Positions 18,001 to 21,000 of a DNA stretch of 24,357 bases are shown in pieces; the stretch's first letter is position 1, and every line of letters begins with the position of its first letter. The stretch comes from Chlamydiota bacterium (GTDB taxonomy: Bacteria > Auribacterota > Tritonobacteria > UBA1439), in the NCBI GenBank assembly GCA_037133055.1, contig JBAXOY010000042.1:1-24357 (forward strand). Direction: 5' to 3'. The position numbers were made by a program.

Positions 18001-21000
18001 GCCTCCTCCGGCGAGGCCGCCGTGACCGCATCGAGCCCCGCCTCGCGCGCGAAGCGAGTCGACGCCCCGTCGAGCGCCGCGGCCTTCACTCCCCGGTACG
18101 GGTCGAAGGAGCCCTTCATCCTGTCCCGGAGCGCCTCCAGACGGGCCACGCACCGCTCGGCGTTCAACGCGTACCGCTCCCGGCGCGCGGGGTCGATCTT
18201 TCGAAGCGCCCTGCCCAGATTCCCCACTTCCATGATCGTGTCGGAGACGCTCATCCAGATCCACGGCAGGCGCGCATCCTCCTCGCCGGGGCGGGCGATC
18301 CCCTCGGCGGTTTCGACGATCGGGAGTTTCGGGTAGCGGATTGCGGTCTCGTCGAGGGAAAGCTCTATGCCGGCGCCGTGCGCGACGAGCACGTCCGCCC
18401 GGTCGAGCGCGGCGCATGCCCCGGGCGAGGCCATATCGCTGCGCTCCTCGGAGGCGGCGGGCCTGAGGCACGACACCTCGACGCCCGGGATGTTCCAGGC
18501 GACATTCAGCGCCATGAGATAGACGGGATACGAGGCGGTCACGATCCGAAACGGTTTTTCGGTCACGGGCTCCGCGTGGAGGAGGGAGCCCCCGAGGGCG
18601 ATGGTCAGCAGCGCGAGGAGAGGACGCGTCTTCATGGATGACGGTTTCCTTTCGTCGGGGAATGCGGGAATGTCCGCGCCCCGCGACGGCTTCTTTATAC
18701 CACGTCCGAAACCGGGCGCAACAGAATTCCACGGCGGGGGTGCCGCGTTCCCGTGGTTCTTCCGCCCCCTTCCTCCGCGCGCTCCGTGTTCTCCGTGGTG
18801 AAGGCTGTTCTTTAAAGTTATTGCGTGCGCCCGCCCGCATGGTACAATGCCCGACGGATCTTTGAAGCAGGTGAGGGAAAACGGTGAGAAGCCGCTGCTG
18901 CCCCCGCAACTGTAAGTGGTGAAGCTGGGAAGCGCCGGTCACTGGCGCGGTGGATCGAAGAGCGCGTGAACGCTCGACGGTTGCCGCACCGGGAAGGCAG
19001 GCGCGTCTGACGGTGCCACGAGCCAGGAGACCTCAGGGGATGACTTCTTCGGGGTGGGAGAAGGCCTTGGGTGTGCCACGGCCGGTTCTTCTTTCCAGAA
19101 GAGTCGGTTTTTTTGTGCCGCGGGGAGCACAAAGAGGAGAAAGAGATGAGATTCTTCACTTGCATCACGGCGGCGCTGGCGTGCGCATGCACCGTGGGGG
19201 CGGCCGCGGTCACGGTGTCGGAGGGATTCACGGCGTCGGCGCTCGGCCAGAACTTCATGGGGGGGTTCGACTATCTTCCCAACGGGGACCTGATCGGGAT
19301 GTACGCGGATCCACTGTTTGCCGGGAACTCGTGGATCGGGATCGTCGACGCGAACGGAGACGGCCTCCCGGCGGCCGTGGAGAAGGTGTACGATTTCGGC
19401 CTGCCGGAATGGGCGGGCTTCGTGAAGGTAAGCCCGGATGGCGCGACCGTGGTCTTCTGTGAGAGCTCGAACTACAGGCTCTTCGCCATGGATCTCGATG
19501 ATTATTCTGCGCGGGAGATCGTACCACGGGGAGGGACGTTCGACGGGGCGTTCGACCTTGCGTTTATCGACGACTCCTCGTGCTACGTGAGCGCCAATCC
19601 GGCGTGGGGTATGACGAACGATATCCTGTTTCTCGAGATCGCCTCGGGGCAGCTGAAGAAAGTCGCATCGGTATCTTCGACCTACTCGGGCCCGCTCGCC
19701 GCAGACGATGAGGGGAGCCTCTACTGCGTCGCGGGGAAGGCGCACTACCCGGTGCAGGCGGGAGATTTCACGCTGCTCAAATTCGATGCGGCGAAACTCG
19801 CCGAGGCGATGGAAGGCGGCACGGTCCTGGGGCGGTCGGATGCGGAGGTCGTCAAGGACGGCCTCGATGGCGGCTACGGCCTGGCGTGGCACGGCTCGGG
19901 CGACCTGTTCGTCTCAGACGCGAACCACGGGAAGATCGTCAGGGTCTCGCCGGGCGGAGCGTCGGCGGAATTCGTCTCGCTCCCCGGCGGGGACGGCGAG
20001 GGGTTCAGGGTGATTTCGATCTTCGACGGCCCGGAGCCGTTCTCCGCGGGGGTGAGGAGCGACTGCCGGCTCGCGACGGACTACCTGCCGCTCCCGGGGG
20101 CGGCGACACCCGACATCTACCGCATCTCTTCTCTCCCGCCCCTTGTGAACGCCGTGGTGAGCGCAAAAACTCTCTCTGCGGGTTCGCGCCTCGCCCTCAC
20201 GGTGACGGCGCAGCCGGAGACGGCGCGCTTCGACGCGTACATCGTGTTTTCCGGCCCCGGCGGCATCGCCTACTCGGTGACGGAGAAAGGGCTCCCCGCG
20301 GGCGTGAAGCCATATGCGTCCGCCGTGCCGGAACTCGCGAAGGAGTTCAAGGCGCGGGTTCTCGACATGGTGGTCCCCCCCGCCGCCGAAACGGGAGCGT
20401 GGACCGTCTACGCGGGGCTCATGCCGGCGGGCACGCCGCCGTCGCCCGCGGCGGCCCTTGCCCTCGACACGACAGGGCTCACGGTGCGCTGAAGGCGCTG
20501 CTCAGCCGGGGCGCTCCCAGAGGTCGAGGTACCGCCGCTTTTCCGCCTCGTTCTCGGATGACGGCTTGACCTCGGGAGCGGGGGAGGGGGAGCGCGTCCT
20601 CGCCTGGAGCCCGGGGCAGAGCCCCGCGAATTCGCTCGAGCGGATCAGTCTCGCCCCCAGGGACCGCGCGCTGTCTCCGACCGGGCGGTCGTCGGTGACG
20701 ACGGTGATGGACCGCGGGCGCGGGGATTCCCTGACGAGCCTGATGATATGCTCGTCGGCAGAGGGTGCGTAGCGGACCTTGAGGTTGGGCAGGATCTGCT
20801 GCATGTCCCCGCCCGCGCTGCTGTCCCAGACGAGCGTGATGAGGATCTGCTTCCGGCCGTAGTGAGCCGCCAGCGCCCGCGTCAGCGCCTCCCGCTCCCC
20901 GTCTCCCGCCCCGCCGAACGCCTTGTAGGCGAGGTTGCACCCGTCGATGACGATCTCTTCCACCGCGGTCCTCCCGTTCCGGGATCAGTATACCAAATGA

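Follow-up and report, generated by a model that had tools for sequence, protein, structure and literature searches.

To our knowledge, hardly any accessory proteins for B12 capture have been described outside gut Bacteroidota, in which BtuB is the gate, and ECF-CbrT is known only from Gram-positives. BtuH (BtuH2, PDB 7BIZ; BtuG1/BtuGH, PDB 8BLW; PMC8941943, PMC10404256) combines an Ig stalk with a C-terminal globular domain, stands under riboswitch control and belongs to hosts without B12 synthesis. In BtuG1, a seven-bladed propeller is fused to a BtuH domain (PMC10404256). BtuG and BtuK are exported acidic propellers under cobalamin riboswitches (PMC10404256, PMC13616437). ECF-CbrT of Lactobacillus delbrueckii (6FNP; PMC5997447) serves a B12 auxotroph through a shared ECF module, and operons of SLBB/transcobalamin-like proteins with ECF genes have been predicted (PMC1796856). 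One Firmicutes btuH lies near an ECF-like transporter, according to PMC8941943. The pairing of BtuH and ECF was therefore published before for one Firmicute; the propeller family described here is the new part.

The regulon described here joins BtuH-type capture and ECF-CbrT; its hosts are uncultured diderm anaerobes that lack cobamide synthesis and have about 30 cobamide-binding proteins. The window, the whole 24,357-nt stretch of DNA that was analysed, is contig C42 of an Auribacterota genome (G000, 92% complete). LpxC and BamA were present, indicating a diderm envelope. A preliminary description had held the organism to be a B12 auxotroph with many B12-dependent enzymes and no BtuF, and the searches agreed. 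CbiD, CobS and BtuF were absent from all nine class genomes, CbiB, CbiC and CobU were absent from G000, and 31 B12-binding-domain matches, 29 of them above cut-off, were found. A marginal FecCD match at C70 was not taken as BtuC, since it lay exactly at the cut-off in a genome with no BtuF. Both cobalamin riboswitches of the genome exceeded the RF00174 gathering threshold of 31.5 bits and were placed as first described, with 112 nt from aptamer end to ATG for g01381 in the window and 73 nt for g02518 on contig C129. The features of the window unit are:

18821..18848, + strand: possible extended -10 promoter (TTGCGT, 16 nt, TG-n-TACAAT), a weak reading made by eye
18874..19033, + strand: cobalamin riboswitch aptamer RF00174 (70.1 bits, E 1.2e-15, model positions 45-169)
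18902-18906, + strand: L5 loop CCCCG of the aptamer
19044..19063, + strand: hairpin with loop CGGGG at 19050-19054, complementary to L5, which we take to be the P13-like kissing-loop element of the expression platform
19080..19114, + strand: intrinsic-terminator-like hairpin (19080-19109, 13-pair stem), then a U run
19146..20492, + strand: g01381, exported protein of 448 aa, single-gene unit, next gene convergent
19146..19205, + strand: Sec-type signal peptide (hydrophobic stretch 6-24, Ala-x-Ala end), by eye and hydropathy
19203..20141, + strand: six-bladed beta-propeller, candidate cobamide binder (AF2 pLDDT 95.8, 24 strands)
20145..20489, + strand: C-terminal lineage domain ("tag") of about 115 aa, common to many exported proteins of the genome

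In riboswitches of this type, the cobamide-bound aptamer leads to L5-L13 pairing and then to a downstream terminator. A complementary loop pair of the L5/L13 type was found in 16 of the 17 riboswitches of the family, and a U tract within 170 nt downstream was likewise found in 16 of the 17 leaders. The terminator scan of the g01381 leader gave 2 hairpins versus 1.5 in shuffled sequences. Because this count is near chance, the call is carried by position and conservation, which point to the terminator-like hairpin at 19080..19114 as a putative transcription-attenuation platform. The leader RNA fold was not better than that of shuffled sequences (z -0.62). The consensus promoter scan called no promoter in the leader, 18821..18848 included, and the reading by eye is weak for this reason. 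Across the class, 17 RF00174 matches were obtained in 8 of 9 genomes (two of them in G000), followed by a propeller gene in 9 cases, a g02518-type gene in 7 and a contig end in 1, the same counts as in the preliminary description.

That description had also stated that no riboswitch precedes a transporter, that only two families of unknown proteins are controlled, and that inner-membrane passage is unexplained. The second unit shows otherwise. C129 ends within g02519, and C89 continues the gene after a gap of about 8 nt, followed by EcfT, a double ATPase and a CbrT-type S-component; the evidence for this join is collinearity with relatives rather than reads. The features of the second unit are:

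C129:3257-3452, + strand: second RF00174 riboswitch (77 bits)
C129:3526-6024, + strand: g02518, 832 aa (length as given in the preliminary description)
C129 from 6049, + strand: start of g02519, 93 aa on C129
C89:1-627: rest of g02519
C89:620-1501: EcfT
C89:1498-3135: EcfA-A'
C89:3298-3939: CbrT
C89:3936-4652: STN-like gene

Inner-membrane passage is thus explained: a complete ECF-CbrT importer, whose genes are spread over two contigs, also lies downstream of the second riboswitch. EcfT, EcfA-A' and the S-component follow the g02518-type gene on the same contig and strand in 4 of 7 loci (G004:C2, G005:C12, G006:C6, G007:C2), and the T and A copies of G000 are 64% and 58% identical to those of relatives. 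The G005 orthologues gave CbiQ (E 4e-4, below cut-off) for T and two ABC_tran stretches for A-A'. The CbrT-type S-component occurs in 7 of the 9 class genomes, always in a g02518-type operon. In contrast to L. delbrueckii with its shared module, T and fused A-A' are encoded in the operon itself, and the importer is of the dedicated (group I) type. It further differs in that its host has an outer membrane and that BtuH-like and propeller partners are added. The g02519 product, which had been called small with a weak DUF4430 hit, is a full DUF4430 protein of about 310 aa (orthologues 306-307 aa). PF14478 scored 46.1, 51.9 and 64.6 bits on full-length orthologues and 22.6 bits on the truncated G000 fragment, against a cut-off of 23.8. 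Its family is exported and adjoins CbiO/CbiQ-like T and A genes in a non-producer, resembling the predicted SLBB/transcobalamin-like operons; the G006 operon lacks DUF4430.

A further reading has the regulon meet a need for cobalt, or some other need linked to corrinoids, instead of cobamide import, with the S-component carrying a different vitamin. Sequence similarity among ECF S-components is low, Pfam gave generic S-component families only, and the window has a CbiMNQO cobalt/nickel system 1.2-7 kb upstream. However, the S-component is far nearer to CbrT (6FNP, E 7.9e-15) than to the next PDB chain (4HZU, E 6.5e-3), CbiMNQO is not headed by a riboswitch, there is no corrin synthesis that needs cobalt, and the BtuH and DUF4430 partners are both of B12 type. 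A cobalt or other-vitamin role is very improbable, and CbrT of C89 very probably transports B12. At one locus (L044), the small membrane protein after the g02518-type gene is DUF6580; it was rejected as BtuM, with no PDB match at E<=0.01.

The g02518 protein, previously left without a family, carries a C-terminal domain (residues ~599-832, AF2 pLDDT 97) that is a homologue of the BtuH B12-binding domain. VIA-align of this domain with 48,161 chains ranked BtuH2 first (7BIZ, Z 14.0, rmsd 3.6, 167 aligned) and the BtuH domain of BtuG1 second (8BLW, Z 13.8, rmsd 3.6, 172 aligned), followed by a row at Z 8.7; 8BLW_B was the sole Foldseek match at E<=0.001. A domain-only profile of 12 sequences matched only 8BLW_B (E 1.3e-5) and 7BIZ_A (E 0.31) in the PDB at E<=10. 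Neither chain was found with the single sequence, and Ig or NHL repeats dominated the results of full-length profiles. Identity to BtuH is 20-25% over the aligned part. The profile aligned Asn399, Phe401 and Glu406 of BtuH2, given as a phosphate/metal (nucleotide-loop) site in PMC8941943 and PMC13616437, with N684, F686 and E698 of g02518, so that the Asn-x-Phe...Glu motif is shared, with Asn and Glu invariant. The Gln333-Phe334 corrin contact of BtuH2 is absent from g02518-type proteins and kept only in the propeller-fused copies L040, L046 and L048. The sequence alignment to 7BIZ stops before Tyr475, His476, Tyr510, Trp511, Trp577, Asp522, Ser582 and Glu584, a set that includes the aromatic residues in contact with the corrin; invariant Asp residues (769/825-type motifs) occur in the g02518 family, and their correspondence to BtuH2 is putative. 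These results suggest that g02518 very likely binds cobamide.

Unlike BtuH, g02518 has no lipoprotein signal (no lipobox Cys within the N-terminal 70 residues). A hydrophobic stretch at 5-23, judged without a predictor, was read as a membrane anchor, and a long Pro/Ala linker leads to four He_PIG Ig domains (E 6e-42) and one FN3-like domain, as opposed to PKD in BtuH. The system also differs from BtuH in its pairing with ECF-CbrT, without BtuB, BtuG or BtuFCD. The BtuH-like core matched the LIC_13355 lipoprotein family of Leptospira (NF033170; 44.8 bits, E 9e-12) far under the cut-off of 120, and membership was rejected; the main text of the LIC_13355 paper (PMC11891782) makes no mention of cobalamin, B12 or riboswitches. 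A BtuH-like match was present in 32 of 79 genomes of the phylum, which extends BtuH far beyond Bacteroidota. No report of BtuH in this phylum, nor a description of the g01381 propeller family, was found in a literature search that covered mostly open-access main texts.

The g01381 protein is 36-68% identical to nine family copies, and the six-bladed fold proposed for it was confirmed by the model. The fold matches of the propeller are generic six-bladed NHL/SGL propellers; 1RWI came first (Z 25.5, rmsd 2.4, 241 aligned), and roughly 50 six-bladed folds are level with one another at Z 20-25. BtuG and BtuK were absent among the best 50 matches listed in either propeller fold search, and no sequence match to them was found. 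No useful match came from searching the PDB with the single sequences of g01381 and of a DUF4430 orthologue. With six blades (24 strands) versus seven, g01381 is a member of neither BtuG nor BtuK. A mode of action like theirs is plausible: the shared features are export, an acidic propeller, riboswitch control and BtuH-domain fusion, and the differences are that no lipid anchor was seen, that BtuB is not adjacent and that some homologues are fused to CbrT. The predicted complex of the propeller with the g02518 domain had a score of 0.02 and a mark of 0.32.

Gene context links the propeller family to B12 in several phyla. Within the phylum, each of the 23 propeller matches either follows a riboswitch or immediately precedes a g02518-type gene; riboswitch-headed propellers number 10 in family f1 and 5 of 5 in f11. 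In families f7-f9, eight propellers lie directly upstream of a g02518-type gene, with a riboswitch upstream in 5 of the 7 loci fetched and ECF genes after the pair in 0 of 7. Of the nine loci outside the phylum (Omnitrophota, Bdellovibrionales and Planctomycetales MAGs plus 6 metagenome contigs), five have a riboswitch immediately upstream, and in the other four CbrT is the preceding gene or is fused to the propeller. The module is present in three or more further phyla. A BtuH-like domain is fused to the propeller in 9 of 37 full-domain homologues, and three homologues are in frame with CbrT. These 37 are single- or two-stretch matches chosen by eye among the 150 matches listed, after multi-repeat NHL-like rows and the five top rows of the own family were dropped. 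One genome (G003, 94% complete) has the propeller and no g02518-type, CbrT or TonB-receptor match.

The propeller might also be a co-regulated scaffold or an enzyme, either SGL/lactonase-like or freeing cobamide from carriers, with uptake left to the other proteins. Lactonases and NHL domains are among the tied fold matches, the Atlas neighbours are NHL/SGL clusters, and BtuK2 shows that a place in a B12 operon does not imply that a propeller binds B12 (PMC13616437). The matches to SGL (PF08450, 20.6 bits, E 4e-4) and ScyE (17.9 bits, E 2e-3) were, however, under their cut-offs of 26.3 and 80, and assignment to SMP-30/gluconolactonase or ScyE was rejected. SMP-30-type lactonases carry a Glu/Asn/Asn/Asp metal set; the conserved positions here are instead, for the most part, Gly, Pro and aromatic residues where the blades begin. 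The g01381 propeller is strongly acidic (net -24) with a conserved D-A-N-G-D-G loop, and 44 of 45 domains of its type are net acidic, as is the binding face of BtuG (PMC10404256). The propeller has its own riboswitch, is often the only gene of its unit and reaches three copies in one genome (G007), all of which suits a stoichiometric binder. A non-binding role is thus somewhat improbable, and we lean towards direct binding of cobamide by the propeller. This family of "hypothetical" propellers can be named as candidate cobamide binders.

From the observed regulon anatomy, homologies, auxotrophy and cross-phylum linkage we infer binding, transport, an order of hand-off and a location, which together would form a relay that captures cobamide, is repressed through riboswitches and supplies ECF-CbrT in a diderm auxotroph; we consider this relay probable. 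The two riboswitches would define the B12-uptake regulon. With plentiful cobamide, the aptamers would be bound, L5-L13 paired and the terminators formed, turning both units off. With scarce cobamide, the C129-C89 operon would yield g02518, g02519 and ECF-CbrT, and the window unit g01381. The propeller and the BtuH tip would capture dilute cobamide, most probably within the periplasm, and hand it, presumably via the DUF4430 protein, to CbrT, through which the ECF ATPases would drive import. The capture role proposed outside Bacteroidota is thus upheld by the BtuH domain and the cross-phylum propeller context. The extracellular location is not, because the N-terminal anchor without lipobox and the in-frame propeller-CbrT fusions make the periplasm at least as likely; some propellers would sit at the inner membrane, since they are fused to CbrT. 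A periplasmic rather than surface location is modestly favoured.

In a surface arrangement as in Bacteroides, g02518 and g01381, the latter attached through its tag, would sit on the outer face of the outer membrane and feed a BtuB-type TonB receptor that is missing from the bin or too divergent to be recognised. The tag has 43 matches in G000, 39 of them within 25 aa of the end of the frame, like a sorting domain; it has no Pfam family and only unnamed clusters as Atlas matches. BtuH, G, J and K are surface lipoproteins (PMC13616437). G000 also has two TonB C-terminal domains. All three loci fetched from family f9 have a TonB receptor immediately ahead of a g02518 orthologue (37% over ~740 aa), and two of them carry an AdoCbl riboswitch upstream. 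However, no receptor follows any of the 17 family riboswitches, and five genomes with module parts (G001, G003, G021, G024, G039; 94-96% complete) have no PF00593 match. The barrel search agreed with the preliminary description that G000, the g01381 locus included, has no TonB receptor and that 5 of 7 family relatives have one. Its absence had been put down to a probable gap in the bin, and the relatives' receptor had been proposed as a possible BtuB. The G007 receptor lies in an island of about 9.8 kb, whose matching flanks are 84 nt apart within G000:C41 without N, and the receptor is truly absent at this syntenic site, which rules out a bin gap there. The G004 orthologue adjoins CbiM, TonB, an HTH regulator, DUF364, XdhC and ExbB, a metal-uptake context. 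No riboswitch lies within 14-18 kb around the receptor in 3 of 3 genomes checked. The best NCBIfam family for the G007 type was TonB-B12, with 122 bits versus 600 and tied with siderophore and heme families; a reading of the receptor as BtuB is not supported. Together with the missing lipobox Cys of g02518, these results make surface capture unlikely.

In the host of this regulon, a 1.35-kDa cofactor would cross the outer membrane without a B12-regulated receptor. A propeller that is a new class of high-affinity cobamide binder, arisen apart from BtuG/BtuK and yet fused to BtuH domains and to CbrT, with receptor-free B12 uptake through stalked BtuH, DUF4430 and ECF-CbrT, is a quite doubtful proposal when taken as a whole. 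In this proposal, the propeller in G024:C12 would take the operon slot occupied by a riboswitch-controlled receptor in the sister genomes (G032:C44, G029:C89).

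The genes behind the cobalamin riboswitches of the genome under study (G000) form a real and coherent B12-uptake regulon, mostly of known parts in a new pairing. Only two RF00174 copies were found in G000 by Rfam search of the genome, and the elements discussed first are the following.

Window 18874-19033, + strand: cobalamin riboswitch RF00174 (Rfam, 70.1 bits)
Window 19080-19109: terminator-like stem of 13 pairs in the g01381 leader
Window 20145-20489, + strand: C-terminal tag of g01381, found at 42 other places in G000
Contig C129, 3257-3452, + strand: cobalamin riboswitch RF00174 (Rfam, 77 bits)

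In the class, 17 riboswitches were matched in eight of nine genomes. Reading downstream of each bore out this count and the earlier tally: nine precede a propeller gene like g01381, seven a homologue of g02518 (the gene behind the C129 riboswitch), and one a contig end. Of the 17 leaders, 16 contain a hairpin whose loop complements L5, and 16 contain a U tract. Together with the stem in the window, and by analogy with known cobalamin riboswitches, they make transcription attenuation the most likely mode of regulation. One of the seven g02518-type loci (G007:C45) holds only the C-terminal domain and tag, a lone BtuH-like domain carrying the tag. In another of the seven, G008:C358 (L025:1644-3011), the N-terminal part of g02518 passes into an unrelated protease-like tail, and the last 55 residues of the domain lie with DUF4430-ECF genes on a separate contig (C24, L058); the junction is probably a misassembly.

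The B12 auxotrophy proposed in the preliminary description was upheld, as CbiD and CobS were not found in any of the nine class genomes, nor CbiB, CbiC and CobU in G000 (92% complete). BtuF was likewise absent from all nine, as had been stated for this bacterium. B12-binding domains gave 31 matches, 29 exceeding the cut-off, some of which may be B12-independent.

g02518 had been regarded as a family of unknown kind, but a model of its C-terminal ~234 residues, built on 100 sequences (pLDDT 97), had two top matches in a fold search: BtuH2 (7BIZ; Z 14.0, rmsd 3.6 over 167 aligned residues) and, from BtuG1, the BtuH domain (8BLW; Z 13.8). Many jelly-rolls followed, none above Z 8.7. The sole Foldseek match at E<=0.001 was 8BLW_B, and 7BIZ and 8BLW chains were the sole PDB matches of a domain-only profile at E<=10. 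In the alignment with 7BIZ, where adding 100 to the chain number gives the number used in the paper, BtuH2 Asn399, Phe401 and Glu406 fall on N684, F686 and E698; in BtuH2 these residues are reported as contacts to phosphate, lower ligand and metal (PMC8941943; PMC13616437). The alignment stops short of the C-terminal contacts of BtuH2. Both proteins carry a tip domain on an Ig stalk, which in g02518 consists of four He_PIG stretches, whereas the Gln333-Phe334 contact is not conserved in that alignment and g02518 has no lipobox. g02518 is BtuH-like and probably binds cobamide. BtuH-like domains were matched in 32 of 79 phylum genomes. Small stand-alone versions occur in other families of the phylum (L059:2721-3716, L060:5930-7671), one directly behind a cobalamin riboswitch, the other next to a BtuF-like gene and near a riboswitch. 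BtuH-like domains were also found in P0099, P0110, P0113 and P0120, proteins named prepilin-type H-X9-DG. Over the BtuH core, residues 658-774 of g02518 (L018:5497-5847) weakly match the LIC_13355 family of Leptospira, a lipoprotein investigated for host binding; the match hints that it may have a BtuH domain.

The DUF4430 gene g02519, previously called small, is incomplete on C129, which stops after its first 93 residues; orthologues have 306-307 aa with DUF4430 at 46-52 bits. C89 starts at about residue 96, and the two contig ends lie ~8 nt apart when aligned against G007. On the same strand as the g02519 remainder, C89 carries:

620-1501: EcfT
1498-3135: double ABC ATPase
3298-3939: S-component (CbrT-type), best PDB match 6FNP
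3936-4652 (L033): STN-like-domain gene with Pro-rich tail; PF07660 in orthologues

The same order lies behind a riboswitch on single contigs of G004, G005 and G007, and of G006 without DUF4430; it is present too in G001 and G002, and in part in G008. Since the S-component best matches the B12 transporter ECF-CbrT (E 7.9e-15; PMC5997447), one riboswitch does head a transporter, contrary to the preliminary description. With this S-component as query, CbrT-type proteins were found in seven of nine class genomes, with no match in G003 and G008. G003 (94% complete) has a riboswitch-propeller unit and gave no match for g02518-type proteins, CbrT, BtuF or a TonB receptor. At another locus, where riboswitch, propeller and g02518-type gene come first, a DUF6580 membrane protein (L044:8375-8899) stands instead of the ECF genes and is a candidate alternative inner-membrane B12 transporter. 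The STN-like gene overlaps the CbrT stop in five family genomes and encodes a signal peptide, an STN/secretin-N0-like domain (PF07660 in 4/5 orthologues at E<=1, best 1.6e-5) and the Pro-rich tail; a link to the missing outer-membrane step is possible. G001 differs in having a TonB gene after CbrT.

The g01381 protein consists of a signal-peptide-like start, a 313-residue propeller and the 115-residue tag, which occurs 43 times in G000 (39 at the frame end), on many unrelated exported proteins. The tag has no Pfam family and is a candidate sorting or anchoring domain. The propeller model from 45 sequences (pLDDT 95.8) has 24 strands, confirming six blades, whereas BtuG (PMC10404256) and, as described, BtuK (PMC13616437) have seven. 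Because its fold matches tie among six-bladed NHL/SGL propellers, structure does not give its function; genomic context provides the clue. An Asp-rich loop is nearly invariant, and 44 of 45 domains are net acidic (G000 copy, -24).

When 79 phylum genomes were searched in full with a profile, 23 propeller matches turned up in 20 of them. All ten copies in the family of G000 stand behind riboswitches (in one case as the second of two tandem genes), and five of five in family f11 directly so. By coordinates, the eight copies in families f7-f9 each lie immediately upstream of a g02518-type gene; a riboswitch was present at five of seven fetched loci of this kind (six of those eight, plus G021). 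Outside the phylum, three genome and six metagenome loci were returned, with a riboswitch directly upstream in five and CbrT directly upstream or in frame in four; three show the full order g02518-type, DUF4430, EcfT, EcfA, CbrT, propeller. Among 37 full-domain homologues, chosen by eye from a representative library leaving out multi-repeat NHL-like rows and five top rows from this family itself, the propeller is directly followed by a BtuH-like domain in nine, as in BtuG1; a profile recognised eight of these and inspection by eye the ninth. A further two, together with the L041 protein, start with CbrT sequence. These sets partly overlap and include non-independent kin, covering at least four named lineages. 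In two f11 genomes, prepilin-type N-methylation/DUF1559 genes (L062:5110-5859, L065:6205-6957) follow the riboswitch-controlled propeller.

Going by the names of its homologues, the organism belongs to Ca. Auribacterota. LpxC and BamA are present, indicating an outer membrane, and Gram-negatives are described as needing BtuB (PMC6072759). As reported before, TonB-dependent receptors (PF00593) were matched in five of seven family relatives and not in G000. The absence had been ascribed to a probable gap in the bin. However, the receptor of G007 is part of a ~9.8 kb island, and in the middle of G000:C41 the two flanks of this island are separated by just 84 nt, so this receptor is truly absent from G000. 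The G004 receptor orthologue neighbours CbiM, TonB, an HTH regulator, a T component, DUF364, XdhC and ExbB; a search of 14-18 kb around the G004, G006 and G007 receptors found no B12 riboswitch, and no receptor under B12 control was seen in the family. In family f9, a receptor directly precedes the g02518 orthologue in 3/3 loci, two with a riboswitch, so a BtuB-like receptor can be a partner of g02518-type proteins. In G024 the propeller takes this first slot in what reads as the same neighbourhood, with a feoB-like gene before and a peptidase-like gene after, both labelled from motifs. Propeller and receptor alternate as the first gene behind the riboswitch, ahead of a g02518 orthologue, in similar surroundings (L055 vs L069-L071), and G032 has both operon kinds.

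From these homologies and linkages we infer binding, hand-off and location as follows. Scarce cobamide would lift attenuation; cobamide would be captured by the propeller and by the BtuH tip, which a stalk joins to an N-terminal membrane anchor; DUF4430 would hand it to CbrT, and the ECF module would import it. The missing lipoboxes and the fusions to CbrT are consistent with a periplasmic site, the tag and the Bacteroides model with one at the surface.

Several parts have precedents in the literature. BtuH was described in gut Bacteroidota; three homologues occur in Firmicutes, one of them close to an ECF-like transporter (PMC8941943). A 2007 study predicted, in non-producers, transcobalamin-like proteins encoded next to CbiO/CbiQ-like genes, in some cases as fusions to a propeller (PMC1796856), and DUF4465 binders already place B12 capture beyond Bacteroidota (PMC13398666). 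A paper on this phylum mentions just 'ABC transporters: cobalamin', and that in some of the genera (PMC9324843). No description of the six-bladed family was found in the literature searched, which leaves the propeller as the one undescribed, testable component.

The window also holds CbiQ/CbiO and CbiM/CbiN-like cobalt/nickel ECF genes (11823-13456 and 15872-17718), not under a riboswitch, and a Ser-type tRNA with long variable arm and UGA anticodon (1065-1151). The gene before cbiM (300 aa, no Pfam, signal peptide, C-terminal Phe) resembles a small outer-membrane barrel; the orthologue in G004 (63%) likewise precedes cbiM.
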